Shown piece after piece: positions 28,222 to 51,012 of a stretch of DNA of 64,000 bases. Numbering within the stretch: position 1 is the stretch's first letter; each line of letters starts with the position of its first letter. The DNA is from Escherichia phage ManiMatter_Bas94. The stretch is from sequence record PQ850617.1; one strand, written 5' to 3'. A program made the translations under genes and the position numbers. The notes beneath the pieces are model-generated. The model made no database searches. It was given only the letters and a program-made list of their open reading frames with translations, and was not told the origin of the DNA.

Positions 28222-28715
28222 TTAGTGTGTATGCATCCAGTTTAACCCAATCTGACAATCAGAAGCCAGAGGACACTCCATGTTCAAGTACTCACCAGCC
28301 TTCTTAACACAAAGCTCGGTGTACTCTTTGAGTTTCTGTACATCATTACGGTTCACTGAGAACTGGCCCTCATCGTGCATATCAATTACCTTAGCACAAC
28401 GAACTCCATCTTTCTCAATCCACTTGTTAAGGAACATCATAGCATATTTCATAACAACAGCACCAGCACATTGCAGGAGTGTGTTAAGGGCTTTATGAAC
28501 CATAACCTTACCAGTGGCATCCCGTCTCATTGTAATCTTACGACCATCAACGCCAATCAAATACCCTTGAGCAGCTTTCTCTGTCATACGATCAATGAGG
28601 ATTGCAATACATGGGTTCTCTGCCAAGAAGCGTGCTCGCATCACTGAACCTTCGTCAGCTCCACCACCTACGATTGAACCAAGCTTAGCATCACCAGCAC
28701 CATAGTTAAACGCAT
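28222..28715 (-). CDS. DNA polymerase (family A, T7 gp5-like), exon 2
   Basis: Frame open upstream of track ORF to 28716; encodes ...FNYGAGDAKLGSIVGGG...VHKALNTLLQ...VIDMHDEGQF (motif C HDE) ...GLNWMHTH. Confidence 0.75.
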
Positions 28716-29421
28716 CTCATATATTCGACAAGAGCCGCAACACTCTCGCCCGTTCTCTTATGAACTGCTACATGTCGCCATGTAGGATAGACTATATCAT
28801 CACCCTCTGTCGAGGGGTTGGGCGCTTCCACCGGCATTAGCTTCCGGTGTACTCCTTTCGGATAGTCGTTGCACCTTCAAGTATTCTATAGCTGTTTCTA
28901 ATCGGCTAACATCATCTTTCAATAGCCCTAAAGCTCTGTTGCAGTTGTGACACAACAGACCGCGTATTACTCCGGATTCATGGCAATGATCAACCACAAG
29001 TTTAATTCTGTGATGTGTTGCCATTGCAAACCCTTCGCCCTTACAGATAGCACACTTCCCATCCTGATCAGCGTACATCTTTTCGTAATCGCTGGCTGTG
29101 ATTCCATAAATTCGTTTGAAGTAGGAATTTCTCCAGCCCCTATCTTTGCATTCATCAGAGCAATAATGTTCAGATGGTGCATTTGGTTGAAAATCTTTTG
29201 AGCAATTACGACAAGGTTTTGGATTGAACCGACCTTGAGGGTATTTACTTGCCTCAGCAGTCTGTTCTTCTTTAGTTTTAGTTACAGTTGTATATTCCAT
29301 AAGCACCTCCATGTTGAGTTGCTATAGAATACTTGCTTGGCTCAGGATTGTCTACTAGAGAGTTTCCCTGAGTTCACCCAATTTAATCGACGAGATTACT
29401 CTCGAAGTATCCATTTACGTC
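28716..29421 (-). mobile_element. Group-I-like intron in DNA polymerase motif B, carrying a homing endonuclease ORF
   Basis: 706-nt interruption; upstream exon ends in U, intron ends in G; joining restores TFI-Y-AFNYGAGD in frame. Confidence 0.6.
28800..29312 (-). CDS. HNH homing endonuclease, endonuclease VII-like
   Basis: KCAICKGEGF...VVDHCHESGVIRGLLCHNCNRALG signature. Confidence 0.75.
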   Translation of the reverse strand: MEVLMEYTTVTKTKEEQTAEASKYPQGRFNPKPCRNCSKDFQPNAPSEHYCSDECKDRGWRNSYFKRIYGITASDYEKMYADQDGKCAICKGEGFAMATHHRIKLVVDHCHESGVIRGLLCHNCNRALGLLKDDVSRLETAIEYLKVQRLSERSTPEANAGGSAQPLDRG

Positions 29422-30772
29422 AGATAAACGTTTTAGCGTTGTCACGAGTAGGAAGACCAGCAAGTTTCTGGTTGTGGGAGTGGATATCACCTTCAAGAAG
29501 GATATCACGATACATAATAGCAGAAGCTAAACCACGTTCTGCCAGAGCTTTCTTAGCTGGATTATTCTCTTCGATTGCTTCAGCAAGCATATCCCTACAT
29601 TCTTTAATGAGGTAGTGAGCGAGCATACGAAGTTCAAGTCCAGAACCATCATACCCTAAGAATACTTCTTTACCAGCGGGTATGTAATATTTGTAAGCAC
29701 CTACAGGCTTATCTTTCTTCCCCGGCTTACCTTTCTCGTAAATTACGTTAGTACCTTTTCGTATATAACAACCATCAGGAACAACGTTAGTAATAACGAA
29801 AGGACGAGAGTGATCACTGTCTGAATTATAGTCAGACTCAAACAAACTGCGACACTCATGACCAAACAAACCACGGGAGGGAATATTAACCACGATACGA
29901 TGTTTGAATCGAAAAGTTGGCGTAGCGCAGCTGTTAGCTTCTGCCGAAAGTTTACCATCTTCGCGTTCCTTTGCTATGAGTCCACTGATAAGACCTAGCC
30001 TGTGAGCCGCTACAACGCGCCTCTTAAGCAAACTTCCAACACTCCCTAGCTCGCCCCCTAACCCTTCTTCAAGAGTCTCCTCGAGGTTTGTAGGAGCTGT
30101 AGGCCACTTGTTTGAGGTAGCTAGTGCTATCTTAATCTCATCAAACGTGATAGGTCTACGTCGGTTAGGGTTTAAACCTAAACCAAACACATAAGCCTTC
30201 ATATAGTTCTTAGTCTTAAACCTAAAATGCTTCTCTAAGAACCTCCTAATATCTGCGTCAACCATCTCGGCTGTCTGCTTCTGTTTAGCATTACCTCGAA
30301 TCCAAGCTGAATACCACGCTTGGTATGTTCCATACTTTCGTATATCTTTCTTGATTTCAAAAGTATTCCAAGGTTTCTTTGATACGTTAAACTCTGGAGG
30401 AAGAAAACCCTCATCCATAAGGGCTTCTTTAACTCGTGCATCTTTCGATGGGTCAAAGTCCACGTATTCAACACAGGTGAATGCTCCACCAATGTCTTCT
30501 CTCTTAAGGCCAACTCTATCACAATAGGCTTGAGGCCACTTCTGTAAAGCTCCAGACTTCTTAAATGGCTTCATATAAGTAGAGCCATCTAATCTCATCT
30601 TAGGTAAGAGAGGGATCAGTTCTTTGTCGATATTAACAATAATCTCTTTAAGGAGGTGAACATACCACCGAGCATTTCTTCGGTTGAAACTCACTCCGTG
30701 CTTCGCTTGCTTAGAGATTATATCAGCGACAGTCATCTCTGTCAAAAATGGGAGAGCGTCCGGGTTGCTCAC
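29422..30772 (-). CDS. DNA polymerase (family A, T7 gp5-like), exon 1
   Basis: LGYDGSGLELRMLAH (motif A) and PTRDNAKTFI (start of motif B); no 3'-5' exo domain in this ORF. Confidence 0.8.
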
Positions 30773-34972: not shown

Positions 34973-35536
34973 TTAGTAAGACACATCACCACTTGAGTGG
35001 GACATGTTGCTCTTGACAAAGTAGCAATACTTGCCAAGACCTTCATTAATTTCTTGAAGCATACTTTGATCGACTGGATAAGTGGCTAAATCGCCATCAA
35101 ACTCATCCATCTTCTCAATAATACACAACAAGGTCATGCACATATCAGAGAGCATACCGTCCATGTCTAGATCAGCGTTACCCTCTGAGAACCAAGCATG
35201 AGAGAGGTAGTTAGCTGCTGTAGCATCCACTTTAACACAGTGGTAACGCATACGTTCAGCAATACGATCTCCTACTTGTCGTGCGTAATCTTCCAGCTCG
35301 TCAAACATACCATGAACACCCTGAAATCCTGCACCAGAGACGTTCCAGTGGTAGTTTTTAGCTTTGATGTGCAAGAGTTCCATATTAGCTTGTAAGCAGC
35401 TCAGGATGTGTTCTAGGCTGTTTCCACTAATCATACCCTGCATCGTTTCAAGGCGAGAGATTGATAGGTCGGACCGGTCTAACATGCTATAACTGTCACG
35501 ACCAATATCAGGTAAATCAAAGACATTCTTATGCAT
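34973..35536 (-). CDS. Dps/ferritin-like protein
   Basis: KNYHWNVSGAGFQGVHGMFDELEDYARQVGDRIAERM matches the Dps signature. Confidence 0.55.
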   Translation of the reverse strand: MHKNVFDLPDIGRDSYSMLDRSDLSISRLETMQGMISGNSLEHILSCLQANMELLHIKAKNYHWNVSGAGFQGVHGMFDELEDYARQVGDRIAERMRYHCVKVDATAANYLSHAWFSEGNADLDMDGMLSDMCMTLLCIIEKMDEFDGDLATYPVDQSMLQEINEGLGKYCYFVKSNMSHSSGDVSY

Positions 35537-36023
35537 TATATTCCCTCCAAGTTTGATTAAGTAGAACTTTTGATATCACTTGCTGAGAGACACCAAAACG
35601 TCTTGCAAGGGCAGAGCCTCCAAACTCTTTATCTCGAGGAATATAAACTCTCCTACAGTACTCTACATCTTTTAGAGTAAGTTTAGACTGCGGATTGTCT
35701 TCTCCAAACCTCTGTACCATCAAACCTAGTGATGATGCATGTTGAGAGTTTTCTCGGTGGGTACACCATTCAAGATTATCTTTATGATTATTAAGTTTAT
35801 TGCCATCCTTATGGTTGACACACGGAAGATTATCAGGGTTCGGTATGTATTTACTAGCAACCAACCTGTGGACATAGAAATTTTTTAATCCGTCAGGAAA
35901 GTAAATAGTAACTCTATAATAGGCACCATTAGTGCGGAGGGTTAAAAACCTCCCACTCTTTACAGTAAATACTCTACCATCTTCTGTTACATCAATCTTC
36001 CCTTCCAATTCCTTTGGAATCAC
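35529..36023 (-). CDS. Free-standing HNH homing endonuclease
   Basis: CVNHKDGNKLNNHKDNLEWCTHRENSQH motif plus C-terminal HTH-like region. Confidence 0.7.
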   Translation of the reverse strand: MIPKELEGKIDVTEDGRVFTVKSGRFLTLRTNGAYYRVTIYFPDGLKNFYVHRLVASKYIPNPDNLPCVNHKDGNKLNNHKDNLEWCTHRENSQHASSLGLMVQRFGEDNPQSKLTLKDVEYCRRVYIPRDKEFGGSALARRFGVSQQVISKVLLNQTWREYNA

Positions 36024-37579: not shown

Positions 37580-38878
37580 TTAGTTATTTGTTTCTATGTC
37601 AAAAGAGAATCCACGACCCGCTTCATCGGCAAACCGAACTGTATGGGTTTGAGGCTCTAATACTTCAGGGTTGTTAGCAATAAAGCGATCAGCGAGACTA
37701 CGACTGACAGTCTCAGCTAACTCTCCATGAGAAGGGATATCAAGATCACCAGCAGCAAAACCCTGACCAGAGAACTGACGTGCGCTAACAGTTAAACCAT
37801 TTGGTCGACCATTAGAACGTCTAGACAACCACTGCTCAAATGAATCACTAGTAACACCAAGAGCCTCTTCAAAAGATGTTCTACGAGTAGGGCTTACTCT
37901 TCGTGACTCTTGTGCTCGACGCATTGCAGGGGCTACAAACACCCCTTCAATTGCATTGTGTCGGTTAGGTTCGTCTTCTCGACCAAGCAGATCACCGCCT
38001 GTGTTAGTCGTTAAGTTTGTTAACCCTTCAGACCAATACGCACGAATCTGGCTAGAGCCATAAATGCTTGACATTAACTGAATCTCTTCATAAGGTATAT
38101 CAAAGAATCGACTCATATCTCGGTTAACACAATACTGAGCACTTGTTGTATCCTCAATAAGAGCAACCTGACCCCGTTCGTTGACCAGATGACTAACCGG
38201 CTGAGGTGTGGGAAGGTGTCGAGTTTGGGCCATGTATTGATATGCAGCTGCTGGAGAGGAAAATCTCAACACTTGCGAGTTAGGCCACTTCTTGTGAACA
38301 TACCTGATTTCACGACTAGAAACAACCACTGGACAAGGGGCGGTCATAGCCAAGTATCCATGAGGGGTCATGAATAAGTTATCAAGAGTCATCGCACCAC
38401 GGCACATCATAGGAAAATTATCCAATACCTCTTCAATAGAAGTAGGATAATTAAACATGAATTGGATACGAACACCATTCCACTGAAACTCAATAATATC
38501 AGTGAATGTTAATTGAGAACCCCCAGCATATGGCTCATCTGTAGCTTCAACAAGAAGAGATGAATACTCAATATCTTGTGATTCAAGCCATTCCTTCACA
38601 TTGCTTTCAATCTCCCGTCCAAGCATTTGCCACTGCTCGGCTGGGATAAAGGTATTTCGAGTTCTTGGTGTTTGTCCTCTGACAATAAAGATATCAATGT
38701 CATGTGGAGCTATGTTATTAAGAACAGCATCACGAATAGCTCCACCAGTAATGATAGGGCAAATACCATCTGGAATCAAGTTGTTGTTAATCAACTGTTC
38801 AATGAAGTGACGACCAACAGTGATATCAGGTTGTTGAGCAACCTTATCTTCAATTCGGTTAATCGGGATAACAATCAT
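37580..38878 (-). CDS. Nucleotidyltransferase with CCA-adding/poly(A) polymerase-type head, Ser/Arg-rich C-terminus
   Basis: PIITGGAIRDAVLNNIAPHDIDIFIV (GGxxRD...DxD); likely start at Met 38878 just after exo stop. Confidence 0.5.
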   Translation of the reverse strand: MIVIPINRIEDKVAQQPDITVGRHFIEQLINNNLIPDGICPIITGGAIRDAVLNNIAPHDIDIFIVRGQTPRTRNTFIPAEQWQMLGREIESNVKEWLESQDIEYSSLLVEATDEPYAGGSQLTFTDIIEFQWNGVRIQFMFNYPTSIEEVLDNFPMMCRGAMTLDNLFMTPHGYLAMTAPCPVVVSSREIRYVHKKWPNSQVLRFSSPAAAYQYMAQTRHLPTPQPVSHLVNERGQVALIEDTTSAQYCVNRDMSRFFDIPYEEIQLMSSIYGSSQIRAYWSEGLTNLTTNTGGDLLGREDEPNRHNAIEGVFVAPAMRRAQESRRVSPTRRTSFEEALGVTSDSFEQWLSRRSNGRPNGLTVSARQFSGQGFAAGDLDIPSHGELAETVSRSLADRFIANNPEVLEPQTHTVRFADEAGRGFSFDIETNN

Positions 38879-38879
38879 T

Positions 38880-48841: not shown

Positions 48842-49805
48842 TGTAATACTCCACTAGTTCAGAAAAGAGAGATGAGATTGTGTTACCGATTTCTTCAGGA
48901 TTAAGACCAGAATCTATTCCAGTACGCTGAATTATTCGTGCTGTAAAGTTTTGTACTGTAATGTTTTCCAACTTATTGTCTATTGCTTCACGTTTGTGAC
49001 CATAACAGTTGGACCAGAGTTTTAACCACTCTGACATTGTTTCATACTCATCCGGATCTTGATCTTTAGCACGAGCAAATCTTCGTAAGACATCTGTGTT
49101 GTGGTTACGAACATAACCATTCTCGTTGTCACCAACACCGAAGGGGTTTTGAACCCATACTTGCTTCGTGTATTCATCAGAGTCAACAACCAAAGGAAGG
49201 AATGCTGCTGCTGACATATTGTTGTCAATAACAACAGACGTGCTTTCACTACTCCCATTGGAAGCTCCTCGTTGAGACCACCTACCAAAGAAGTCACGAC
49301 CCAACCCAGCTAACAATAGAGCGATGCCAATGCGTTTACGCTTCAGCCACTCTTCCCTGTCTTCAATTCCTTCTGCTAGGAAATCCATTCCACGATACTG
49401 CCCTTCCAAAATGCTACGGAAGAGCATAAGTCCTGTGAAGATTTGATCTGCTGGATGCTCACGGAGGTTGACAGCTACGCTATTCGCTGAAGTGATTGTG
49501 AATACATCGCGATAGCAAGACATGGAGTTCATAATATCTGCTGTTTCAACCAAGTTCTTTTCAATATAAGATGCATCATGACCGTGAAAAGAGTGAGTCC
49601 AGTAATTCAGCATCTCCAGTTGCAAGTTGATATCACGGTTGAAGCGTCTATAACGCCCCTCTTCCATGATAACTTCGCCATTAATATCGCTTACGCATTG
49701 GCCTTGCATGTAGTTGTGAATACCGAAGCACCCACGACCTAAGAACTTCTGTTCCCCTAAATCTTGTTGAAGATTCAGAGGTACGATCGTTGTGGAGATT
49801 GACAT
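48834..49805 (-). CDS. Hypothetical protein
   Basis: 323-aa ORF. Confidence 0.4.
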   Translation of the reverse strand: MSISTTIVPLNLQQDLGEQKFLGRGCFGIHNYMQGQCVSDINGEVIMEEGRYRRFNRDINLQLEMLNYWTHSFHGHDASYIEKNLVETADIMNSMSCYRDVFTITSANSVAVNLREHPADQIFTGLMLFRSILEGQYRGMDFLAEGIEDREEWLKRKRIGIALLLAGLGRDFFGRWSQRGASNGSSESTSVVIDNNMSAAAFLPLVVDSDEYTKQVWVQNPFGVGDNENGYVRNHNTDVLRRFARAKDQDPDEYETMSEWLKLWSNCYGHKREAIDNKLENITVQNFTARIIQRTGIDSGLNPEEIGNTISSLFSELVEYYND

Positions 49806-49815
49806 AACTAACCTT

Positions 49816-51012
49816 TTATTTTCCTAAAAATAATCCGCTCATAATACCATCCCACTCAGAGGATGGGATCACTGAATACTCCGAACTTTGGTCCAGAGTT
49901 CCACTACTAAATCGCTGAACAATGTTATAGATGTTGAACAGGTCTTTAGCCTCAGTACGGATACCGTAGACTAATTTATCAGATGTTCTTTCATCTTTAG
50001 ATACCCGACGAGCAAAATTAACCAGAAGGTTGTCACATTTAAGCGTTTCTGACCCACTCTCTACCAAATCAGGGTGCATCACAGGCAAGAACATCGAGTT
50101 ATTGACTCGCAACTCTGCTGTTTCGTCATTCTCATAATGAATCCACTTAAAGTCTTCATCACGGAAGTGACCACAACCATCTCTGTACGACTGCTGACGC
50201 CAAGGCACTTGAAATGCTTCAGCGTATTTATCAGCCATGCCGACTGTAAACAGCGACGCTGGGAAGATACAAGCATCCCAATCATTACCAACCAGAGTTG
50301 CTTTAGTTTCCCCCAAGAGGTTAGTGTAAGTGCTAACCATTCGGGAGTAAATGTAAGCCTGAAGAATTGTCCAGCCTTCAATCAACCATTTATGAAGGAA
50401 GGTTTCAACTTGACTCTCTTCGTCTTCGCAATAGAAGGTTCGGTCTAGCATTAAATAGAACAGACAACGATCAGCAGGGATGTTCTCAGTTGCTACACCC
50501 ATAAAACCTTTCTCGTGCCAGCGTAAACAGGAGGGACGATCTTTGTCCACAAATGCTTCCATAGCTTCCAGTACAGCACGAGGTGAGGTTTGGTATTCAG
50601 GGTTTTTACTATTCCAACGATCAATGTTGTTCTTAGGAGGTGTGTCTTCATCTTCATACGAACACCAACTTAAAGCTTCGGATACATGCTCTGCGTCATG
50701 CCAACGTCTAAAACCTAACATCTTCATGTGAGTTCCGGAGTTCCAGATATGCTTGATTTTACACATATCCATCTCTCGGCTTAACAGGAACTCTTCCCCA
50801 TCAGCACTACGAACGTTAGCTTCTTCATGCCACACTCGAACGTGCATATTCCACCCATGAGTTGCCTCATACATATTAGGGTCGAAGTATTCATATTCGT
50901 CGTCATCTTCATCAACGCCACCATTATAGTTGCGAAGCTGAAGGAATCCATAACAAGGAGGGTTAACCGTTAAAACATTACCTTCAGTATCTTCTAATGT
51001 TACTGGAAACAT
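49816..51012 (-). CDS. Hypothetical protein
   Basis: 398-aa ORF. Confidence 0.4.
   Translation of the reverse strand: MFPVTLEDTEGNVLTVNPPCYGFLQLRNYNGGVDEDDDEYEYFDPNMYEATHGWNMHVRVWHEEANVRSADGEEFLLSREMDMCKIKHIWNSGTHMKMLGFRRWHDAEHVSEALSWCSYEDEDTPPKNNIDRWNSKNPEYQTSPRAVLEAMEAFVDKDRPSCLRWHEKGFMGVATENIPADRCLFYLMLDRTFYCEDEESQVETFLHKWLIEGWTILQAYIYSRMVSTYTNLLGETKATLVGNDWDACIFPASLFTVGMADKYAEAFQVPWRQQSYRDGCGHFRDEDFKWIHYENDETAELRVNNSMFLPVMHPDLVESGSETLKCDNLLVNFARRVSKDERTSDKLVYGIRTEAKDLFNIYNIVQRFSSGTLDQSSEYSVIPSSEWDGIMSGLFLGK

Follow-up and report, generated by a model that had tools for sequence, protein, structure and literature searches.

The 64,000 nucleotides of Escherichia phage ManiMatter_Bas94 analysed here (sequence record PQ850617.1; hereafter, the window) carry at 37580-38878, on the minus strand, a gene whose product is a nucleotidyltransferase (NTase) of the Pol-beta superfamily with an intact metal- and nucleotide-binding motif. 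Judged by profile comparison, its closest family is that of the Gad2-type phage nucleotidyltransferases, a relationship missed by the original prediction, which was made from the sequence alone and read the protein as a CCA-adding or poly(A)-polymerase-like enzyme. In Bacillus phages of the SPbeta type, Gad2 is the second protein that counters Gabija: deletion of gad2 makes SPbetaL7 fully Gabija-sensitive, a Gad2 homologue from a Brevibacillus prophage abolishes Gabija defence, and SPbetaL7 Gad2, in which AlphaFold predicts a nucleotidyltransferase domain, is toxic on expression (bioRxiv 10.1101/2023.05.01.538930). From its motifs, the NTase is very probably an active enzyme of the Gad2 superfamily. 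The explanation that we find best overall, and hold tentatively, is that of a Gad2-like transferase made with the replication proteins that would blunt DNA-targeting defence. The label 'nucleotidyltransferase (class II CCA-adding-like)' already stands in GenBank records and in PHROGs, so that the original prediction rediscovered a known annotation; new beyond it are the Gad2 placement, the departures from both Gad2 and class II enzymes, and a fixed operon slot combined with rapid divergence.

Translation of the window gives 432 amino acids (aa) followed by a TAA stop (37580-37582), in agreement with the position first proposed for the reading frame. The longest mechanical open reading frame (ORF) starts further upstream, at a GTG at 38935 (451 aa); we place the start at the ATG at 38878 because every homologue begins MI.IP, the 45 close ones as well as about 30 more distant representatives of the family. 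The gene and the parts of its product are given below, with conservation counted over 30 family representatives whose identity reaches down to 23%; structural values are from AlphaFold2 (AF2) models, scored by the predicted local distance difference test (pLDDT).

37580..38878, minus strand: complete NTase coding sequence, orthologue of phiEco32 gp73 (phi32_73); PHROG 12715, E=3.2e-240.
38264..38878, minus strand: conserved NTase head domain, residues 1-205, the sole part common to the whole family.
38687..38746, minus strand: motif A, residues 45-64, GGAIRDAVLNNIAPHDIDIF, with the nucleotide-binding GG..RD and the catalytic D60-x-D62; G45, G46, R49, D50, D60, D62 and F64 invariant.
38450..38473, minus strand: beta-strand VRIQFMFN, residues 136-143, with Gln139 at the third-carboxylate position; Q139 nearly invariant, Q/E/D/N in PF26128-type proteins and Q/E in Gad2 relatives.
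38411..38416, minus strand: Phe155-Pro156, in place of the Gad2-type Phe-Asp and, by transitive alignment, of the class II motif B Asp (RRD); P156 nearly invariant.
38282..38314, minus strand: conserved helix REIRYVHKKWP, residues 189-199, R-[DE]-x-x-Y-x-x-K-K-[WYF]-P; Y193 and K197 nearly invariant, position 190 always acidic.
38009..38263, minus strand: helical extension, residues 206-290, loosely conserved (W282 region); AF2 helices at 209-220, 247-259 and 263-269, pLDDT 66-93.
37763..37936, minus strand: Arg/Ser-enriched basic part of the tail, residues 315-372, with RRVS and RRTS, defined by composition and charge; pLDDT <50.
37583..37762, minus strand: acidic C-terminal segment, residues 373-432, net charge -7, ending GFSFDIETNN; indel hotspot after residue 378, with length variants in homologues.

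The catalytic core of the domain is conserved throughout the family. The head motif on which the first reading had been built is present at residues 41-66, PIITGGAIRDAVLNNIAPHDIDIFIV, and is of the class II (PolyA_pol) type. Besides the motif A residues, M1 is invariant; G22, P41, I43, I63, W97, E99, S107, L108, Y117, I128 and M141 join Q139, P156, Y193 and K197 as nearly invariant, and position 127, like 190, is always acidic. The original prediction had made its case depend on conserved active-site aspartates and on a nucleotidyltransferase fold, and both are there: no homologue found departs from GG..RD or from the two DxD aspartates, and the AF2 model and Foldseek confirm the fold. The model of residues 1-300, built on the family-wide alignment, reached a pLDDT of 86.6 and a predicted template-modelling score of 0.84, and the Pol-beta-like superfamily core (the alpha-beta-alpha-beta fold with the hG[GS] and [DE]h[DE]h motifs) is present. 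Against all PDB chains, the top 37 Foldseek matches were all class II enzymes, as were 42 of the top 44 (E from 6e-5), and many phage 'PolyA pol head' proteins of 170-230 aa are structural neighbours of the NTase.

The third catalytic carboxylate (h[DE]h) is absent. Its position is taken by Gln139, and the family as a whole conserves no acidic residue on that face, E130 being variable. A Glu two residues before Gln139, as in 'YEVQ' of DU_RP_I, was considered as the third carboxylate and rejected, as this position is unconserved in either family, whereas the Gln position holds Q, E, D or N. A catalytically dead scaffold kept for binding would show such a gap, and would also account for the loss of the motif B aspartate described below. 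However, the invariance of GG..RD and of both DxD aspartates at <30% identity is hard to explain without catalysis or nucleotide binding, and an alternation of Gln and Glu at the third position is normal in Gad2-type families, making a pseudoenzyme highly improbable.

The link to Gad2 was followed at the level of families. Most Kuravirus homologues of the NTase carry a precomputed Pfam PF26128 match, and contig annotation names this family 'Gad2'; the match is marked weak and was precomputed on Kuravirus orthologues at 87-89% identity, not on the exact window protein, and our Pfam scan of the NTase and its close homologues returned no match to PF26128. Two comparison sets were used, one of SPbetaL7 Gad2 (WIT28108.1) with eight relatives and one of 28 PF26128-annotated small phage proteins, together with a clean class II set made up of E. 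coli CCA, PcnB and three units of a tandem CCA-like protein.

NTase family and small PF26128 proteins (hhalign): 98.1%, E=7e-14, 159 columns, NTase residues 23-202.
Small PF26128 proteins and Gad2 set (hhalign): 98.5%, E=4e-15, 135 columns.
NTase family and Gad2 set, direct (hhalign): 68.5%, E=4.6e-5, 139 columns, all motifs in register.
Small PF26128 proteins and clean class II set (profile-profile): 97.0%, E=8.4e-11, 153 columns.

These alignments describe a superfamily of stand-alone phage transferases of the head type, which splits off from the class II enzymes and has PHROG 12715 as a divergent side branch. The Klebsiella phage protein fHe-Kpn01 Gp22 also aligns with the PF26128 set (hhalign 97.3%). 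No second, closer Gad2 gene was found in the window by tblastn at E<=10, and a 77-kb Escherichia phage match to Gad2 belongs to a Vequintavirinae scaffold and not to a Kuravirus.

Comparison with the class II enzymes gave a different result. The Pfam PolyA_pol profile scores the NTase at 16.7 bits (E=0.0098), below its 23-bit cut-off, and close homologues at 20.2-21.5 bits. PDB sequence searches with the protein and with the family profile returned nothing significant: the best matches were chance hits to bL28 and polybromo, and CCA enzymes appeared at E 0.4-1 through motif A only. In profile-profile comparison with the clean class II set, the NTase family aligned over only 34 columns, those of motif A (83.4% probability). 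Within it, GGxVRD...DxD is present as GGAIRD(x9)DID, residues 45-62. Motif B (RRD) is not: by transitive profile alignment, the invariant D92 of the class II set corresponds to the F-D of PF26128 and from there to F155-P156 of the NTase, and the positions of motif D (EDxxR), by the same route through the PF26128 set, fall on P183, V184 and S187. In class II enzymes, the aspartate of RRD senses the ribose 2'-OH, and base selection falls to EDxxR, motif D. Also missing are the helical neck, body and tail with which these enzymes bind tRNA or RNA, as the original prediction had noted of neck and body: only 139-165 residues align to enzymes of 344-517 residues (identity 12-17%), and residues 272-432 are predicted to be disordered. 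A family-profile search at E<=1e-3 found no canonical single-copy CCA-adding enzyme; its one match of this kind was a 1455-aa tandem CCA-like protein, through motif A only. This metagenomic protein (P0076) consists of four tandem class II CCA-enzyme-like units, an uncommon architecture, and, despite the weak motif A match, has no bearing on the NTase.

These results bear directly on the main idea of the original prediction, a minimal CCA-adding or tRNA 3'-end repair enzyme acting against tRNA-targeting defence nucleases. In its favour are the GGAIRD..DIDIF of motif A, the top structural matches, which are CCA-adding enzymes, and the CCA label borne by the GenBank records of NJ01, SU10 and O18-011. 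Against it stand the sub-threshold Pfam score, the class II profile match limited to 34 columns, the replacement of the motif B aspartate by Pro156, the apparent lack of an aligned EDxxR equivalent, the lack of neck, body and tail domains, the absence of a canonical single-copy CCA enzyme from the exhaustive family-profile search, and the absence of tRNA genes from the 64-kb window. We consider such an enzyme very improbable. The label of CCA-adding enzyme or poly(A) polymerase is not sustained at the family level, and we consider it established that the NTase belongs to the Gad2-type superfamily instead. Because the Gad2-type family is the closest, the likely role moves from tRNA 3'-end repair towards interference with DNA-targeting defence. 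RNA tailing and nucleotide-signal production, also named in the original prediction, stay candidate roles alongside tRNA repair.

The NTase is a real gene rather than a chance ORF, because the ratio of non-synonymous to synonymous substitution rates (dN/dS) of its N-terminal domain is 0.10-0.14 against five relatives, indicating purifying selection, and because its SU10 orthologue was seen by mass spectrometry, through one peptide (PMC4281155). It directly follows the gene for an exonuclease subunit (exo):

38880..39434, minus strand: exo, the partner gene, encoding the 184-aa DnaQ-like 3'-5' exonuclease subunit of a split family-A DNA polymerase; Pfam DNA_pol_A_exo1, E=3.8e-9; PHROG 38876/403, 'DNA polymerase exonuclease subunit'.
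38876..38882, minus strand: TAA-A-ATG junction, with the exo stop at 38880-38882, the spacer at 38879 and the NTase start at 38876-38878; the layout recurs in relatives.

The 3' end of exo reads ...TGG AAA ATG TAA, and the junction sequence bears out the observation that the NTase ATG lies 1 nt past this stop. Such a layout is compatible with translational coupling, as had been suggested. The two genes abut, with gaps of 0-18 nt, in phiEco32, Bas86 and Bas89 and in distant metagenomic relatives; two relatives with an NTase at only ~30% identity have gaps of 4 and 18 nt. A scan for promoter and terminator consensus sequences, with counts at the level of chance, placed nothing between exo, the NTase gene and the dCTP deaminase gene (dcd), and no terminator-like site separates the three. 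Exact copies of TAATGTATA, the consensus for promoters of the phage sigma factor (PMC8948821), number 5 in the window (0.74 expected), at 1034, 17917, 26381, 26453 and 31892. None of these five lies upstream of the minus-strand primase-exo-NTase-dCTP deaminase block, which is therefore probably of the early class and read from promoters farther upstream; this fits the listing of the NTase among the early products of SU10.

By megablast, the region 37000-39500 matches 98 phage records; those with a name are all from phiEco32-type phages (Kuravirus, Gordonclarkvirinae) of Escherichia or Shigella, with Bas93 (97.7%), Bas92 (96.4%) and LAMP (96.0%) as the best matches, and the window is itself a Kuravirus genome. 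The PHROG 12715 profile matches at full length, residues 1-379 on profile positions 1-380, and identity to Kuravirus orthologues is 79-93%. A word-indexed search returned 45 homologous proteins, nearly all at >=74% identity, and an exhaustive HMMER search of 1.84 billion cluster representatives with the N-terminal-domain profile yielded only 34 proteins at E<=1e-3. What these 34 have in common is the first 205-220 residues; the tails that follow, 60-270 residues long and with much Ser, Thr, Asn and Arg, are unrelated. Of 50,697 phages in the database, 97 carry a family member, and all of them are Escherichia or Shigella phages; in 50-odd of these, the annotated neighbourhood has exo, dCTP deaminase and primase/helicase adjoining the NTase, as in phiEco32. 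The local order in Bas93 and phiEco32 is gamma-glutamyl cyclotransferase, primase/helicase, exonuclease subunit, NTase, dCTP deaminase, small ORFs, a Dps-like gene, thioredoxin and ThyX. Distant members come from metagenomic viral contigs of 82-90 kb; two that were read in detail have an identical gene order, and in a third the neighbourhood genes lie in phiEco32-like order by tblastn. NCBIfam and PADLOC scans of the NTase gave no match.

This constant position is combined with an unusual rate of change. Although the operon is highly conserved, the NTase diverges far faster than its neighbours, as tblastn identities to Suseptimavirus-type and metagenomic relatives illustrate:

Primase/helicase: 93-94% to Suseptimavirus-type, 77-78% to metagenomic relatives.
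dCTP deaminase: 93-94% to Suseptimavirus-type, 75-81% to metagenomic relatives.
Exonuclease subunit: 80% to Suseptimavirus-type, 56-59% to metagenomic relatives.
NTase domain: 38% to Suseptimavirus-type, 29-32% to metagenomic relatives.

Within Kuravirus, the non-synonymous rate (dN) of the NTase domain is 0.04-0.06, >20 times that of primase/helicase (0.001-0.002) and about twice that of exo and dCTP deaminase, while its dN/dS holds near 0.10. Constraint weakens along the protein, with dN/dS values for residues 206-290 of 0.14-0.35 against four relatives (0.05 against the closest, Bas93) and of 0.36-0.56 for the tail. The NTase is thus a functional protein whose surface turns over fast around a fixed active site. 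Rapid divergence suits a protein that faces a changing partner, and relaxed constraint outside the active site would also produce this pattern.

The tail, from about residue 291, is indel-prone and predicted to be disordered; in the full-length AF2 model, built on a shallow alignment (pLDDT 52), residues 272-432 all have pLDDT <50. Arg and Ser make up 15% and 14% of residues 315-380, against 7-8% in the whole protein. Of the low-complexity Ser/Arg-rich tail that was first described, the enrichment therefore stands, at a moderate level, whereas the low complexity gives way to a disordered, indel-prone extension. Its charge is basic over residues 301-372 (net +2, 11 Arg) and then acidic over 373-432 (net -7). 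The idea that the terminal 'FSFDIETNN' copies or mimics the Exo I motif (FDIES) of the upstream exonuclease was rejected, as phiEco32 has 'ISFEIDENN' in its place and the ends of distant relatives are unrelated. Although they cannot otherwise be aligned, the tails of distant members (P0049-P0064) share a short helix-like R-x-S-[FML]-[ED]-[ED]-[AV], found here as RRTSFEEAL, residues 332-340, in the tail-coding part of the gene (37583-38008, minus strand). In many family tails, acidic residues are followed by a terminal aromatic residue (W/F/Y), which recalls the docking tails of proteins of the single-stranded DNA-binding protein (SSB) type.

Relatives of the NTase in unrelated phages keep similar company:

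Ralstonia phage DU_RP_I (T7-like): relative between primase and DNA polymerase.
Klebsiella phage fHe-Kpn01: gp22 (L017, 4894-5442), overlapping the end of the DNA polymerase gene by 4 nt.
Streptococcus phage 9873: gp36 (L035, 832-1476), between exonuclease and SSB.
Sulfitobacter phage NYA-2014a: relative between a repair protein and an exonuclease.

Gad2-type transferases therefore repeatedly adjoin replication or recombination genes, an association that does not seem to have been discussed for Gad2. It fits a target tied to replicating DNA, and equally well a housekeeping role at the fork.

The second of these roles would make the NTase a core accessory of the replisome: a template-independent transferase, tethered through its acidic tail to polymerase, helicase or SSB, that acts on the 3' ends of primers or of the genome, in ordinary replication or to protect ends, and is not directed at defence. 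The constant slot in the replication block across the lineage, with a start that abuts the exo stop, speaks for it, as do the relatives next to DNA polymerase or primase in unrelated podophages and the acidic C-terminus with its aromatic residues in a family where many members end in W, F or Y. Loss of the class II ribose-sensing aspartate (P156) might in addition permit the use of deoxynucleoside triphosphates (dNTPs). However, a core factor should evolve at the pace of its neighbours, whereas the NTase retains 29-40% identity where they retain 57-94%; and the protein has no detectable DNA-binding domain. With three family members as tblastn queries, the only records containing the gene were those of Escherichia and Shigella phages; relatives such as Salmonella phage 7-11 appear to be without it, so that it is probably dispensable for the replication system. 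A replisome accessory is unlikely on this balance.

The adjacent dCTP deaminase raises another alternative, that the NTase is a nucleotide-metabolism or DNA-modification enzyme partnering it. The BASEL authors noted the deaminase-nucleotidyltransferase pair and speculated that DNA modification underlies the marked restriction resistance of these phages (PMC11990801). The deaminase adjoins the NTase in every relative examined, and resistance to restriction-modification is indeed striking (PMC11990801). However, the phage encodes ThyX, a deoxynucleoside monophosphate (dNMP) kinase and thioredoxin, an ordinary route of dTTP supply that, given ThyX and the dNMP kinase, is the simpler reading of the deaminase; and the two proteins of the pair evolve at very different rates. 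Furthermore, no base-modification pathway is known to use a class-II-like, head-only transferase. A part in DNA modification is accordingly very unlikely.

Transfer to RNA is a further candidate. Like poly(A) polymerase I (PAP I) or MenT/AbiEii, the NTase could add nucleotides to the 3' ends of host mRNA or tRNA, leading to decay or to a block of aminoacylation and serving host take-over. The closest solved structures are those of RNA 3'-end transferases, the Arg-rich segment of the tail recalls the basic C-terminus of E. coli PAP I, and toxicity in E. coli is reported for Gp22 of fHe-Kpn01, a distant relative (PMC7291057), SPbetaL7 Gad2 being toxic on expression as well. We regard RNA tailing as unlikely, and were the NTase merely a dispensable RNA-tailing enzyme, its identification would amount to routine annotation.

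We return to the Gad2-like transferase directed at defence. In the mechanism we propose, the NTase is produced together with the replication proteins, directly behind the exonuclease subunit. D60 and D62, with Gln139 in place of the usual third carboxylate, would move a nucleotide from an NTP or dNTP to a hydroxyl group. The target, a host protein or the 3' end of a nucleic acid, would most likely be tied to phage DNA under replication. This transfer would blunt a DNA-targeting host defence, for which Gabija is the first candidate by analogy with Gad2, and the tail, basic and then acidic and predicted to be disordered, would anchor the enzyme on its target or at the replisome. A role in counter-defence or host interference is quite possible, and the unusual resistance of Gordonclarkvirinae to host restriction, which has no known mechanism, counts for it (PMC11990801), as do the arms-race-like divergence of a domain under purifying selection and the repeated siting of relatives next to replication or recombination genes; that the NTase acts specifically against Gabija, an analogy with Gad2, is unlikely. 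Because the ribose-sensing aspartate is lost and the place in the replication operon is kept, one can also conceive of a transferase directed at DNA that would cap or lengthen linear replicating phage DNA at its 3' ends, or would nucleotidylate a host nuclease such as GajA, and so hide ends from Gabija-like systems. This more specific version is a long shot. If true, it would reveal the mechanism of the Gad2 family and help to explain the resistance of Gordonclarkvirinae to DNA-targeting immunity.

Several observations weigh against a defence-directed Gad2-like transferase. Nucleotidyltransferase activity is not guaranteed because no third acidic residue is conserved. The direct link between the NTase and Gad2 is weak, at the hhalign value given above and, in pairwise BLASTP, at E=0.004 over 45 residues. 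Phe-Asp is invariant in both Gad2-type sets (F112 and D113 in the PF26128 set; D106 and F107 in the Gad2 set) where the NTase has F155-P156; because this aspartate is a proline and the C-terminal halves are unrelated, the substrate may differ from that of Gad2. The NTase also looks like a fixed core gene, occupying the same slot beside exo and dCTP deaminase in the 50-odd annotated records and in the metagenomic relatives examined, whereas anti-defence genes typically sit in variable accessory loci. The panel of defences tested on these phages in BASEL was without Gabija (PMC11990801), and we found no functional study of phiEco32 gp73 or its orthologues in the literature and no biochemistry for any member.

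The relationship matters because the anti-Gabija action of Gad2 is proven and because Gad2, as a predicted enzyme, stands apart from inhibitors that just bind their target. According to a 2026 review, the mechanism of Gad2 is unknown, and Gabija responds to RecBCD inhibition and to DNA ends (PMC12904381). As a divergent relative of Gad2 in a phage group with members that infect E. coli K-12 (BASEL Bas86-93), the NTase offers a tractable entry to what such transferases modify.

Elsewhere in the window, the remainder of the split family-A DNA polymerase, whose exo subunit (38880-39434, minus strand) adjoins the NTase, lies 8 kb downstream as a body encoded at 29420-30772 and 28222-28644 (minus strand; Pfam DNA_pol_A, E=5e-14). 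An endonuclease VII ORF (28800-29312; PF02945, E=1e-23) interrupts this body, which is a joined coding sequence in Bas93, and the arrangement looks like an intron or a homing-endonuclease insertion. An HNH endonuclease (35529-36023, minus strand; PF13392, E=7e-9) lies between a Dps/ferritin-like gene (34973-35536) and a 108-aa ORF. Neither Bas93 nor phiEco32 has an annotated gene there, so the HNH gene is probably a mobile homing-endonuclease insertion. A phiEco32-type cluster at 41438-51012 (minus strand) comprises an amidoligase (46308-47411), a COOH-NH2 ligase (48035-48841), a glutamine amidotransferase (44198-45889), an ATP-grasp-like protein and a gamma-glutamyl cyclotransferase (41438-41857), and is predicted to form a pathway of peptide or metabolite modification.

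Set against known systems, the NTase differs from the class II enzymes in having no counterpart of motif B RRD and apparently none of motif D EDxxR. MenT and AbiEii-type toxins are small enzymes with a Pol-beta fold; they act on the 3' ends of nucleic acids in the conflict between phage and host and offer a possible analogy for the toxicity of its relatives. The small NTases of PF26128 and PHROG 1614, such as DU_RP_I gp11 and fHe-Kpn01 Gp22, share with it GGA(L/V)RD, DxD, the Q/E strand, the KYP helix and a place beside primase or DNA polymerase; unlike it, they are 170-230 aa long, have no long tail and keep F-D. They are also widespread in Autographiviridae and other phages, whereas the NTase branch is confined to phiEco32-like phages and metagenomic kin. 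SPbetaL7 Gad2 (WIT28108.1) resembles the NTase in overall build, as a phage stand-alone, head-type enzyme of ~400 aa with an N-terminal NTase domain and a non-homologous C-terminal half. GG, DxD, the 'hQhM/I' strand and the 'R..KY' helix follow in the same order in both, with Gln at the third position in each, and the '..KYP' or 'LRVxKY' helix of Gad2-type proteins is the counterpart of NTase helix 189-199. The two differ in that Gad2 lacks the R-D after GG ('GGAITS'), which the NTase keeps, and has an invariant F-D where the NTase has F-P. The C-terminal half of Gad2 aligns with those of its relatives and is apparently a domain, whereas the NTase tail is predicted to be disordered. Finally, Gad2 belongs to a variable anti-defence locus of a temperate Bacillus phage, and the NTase is fixed in the replication block of a lytic coliphage.

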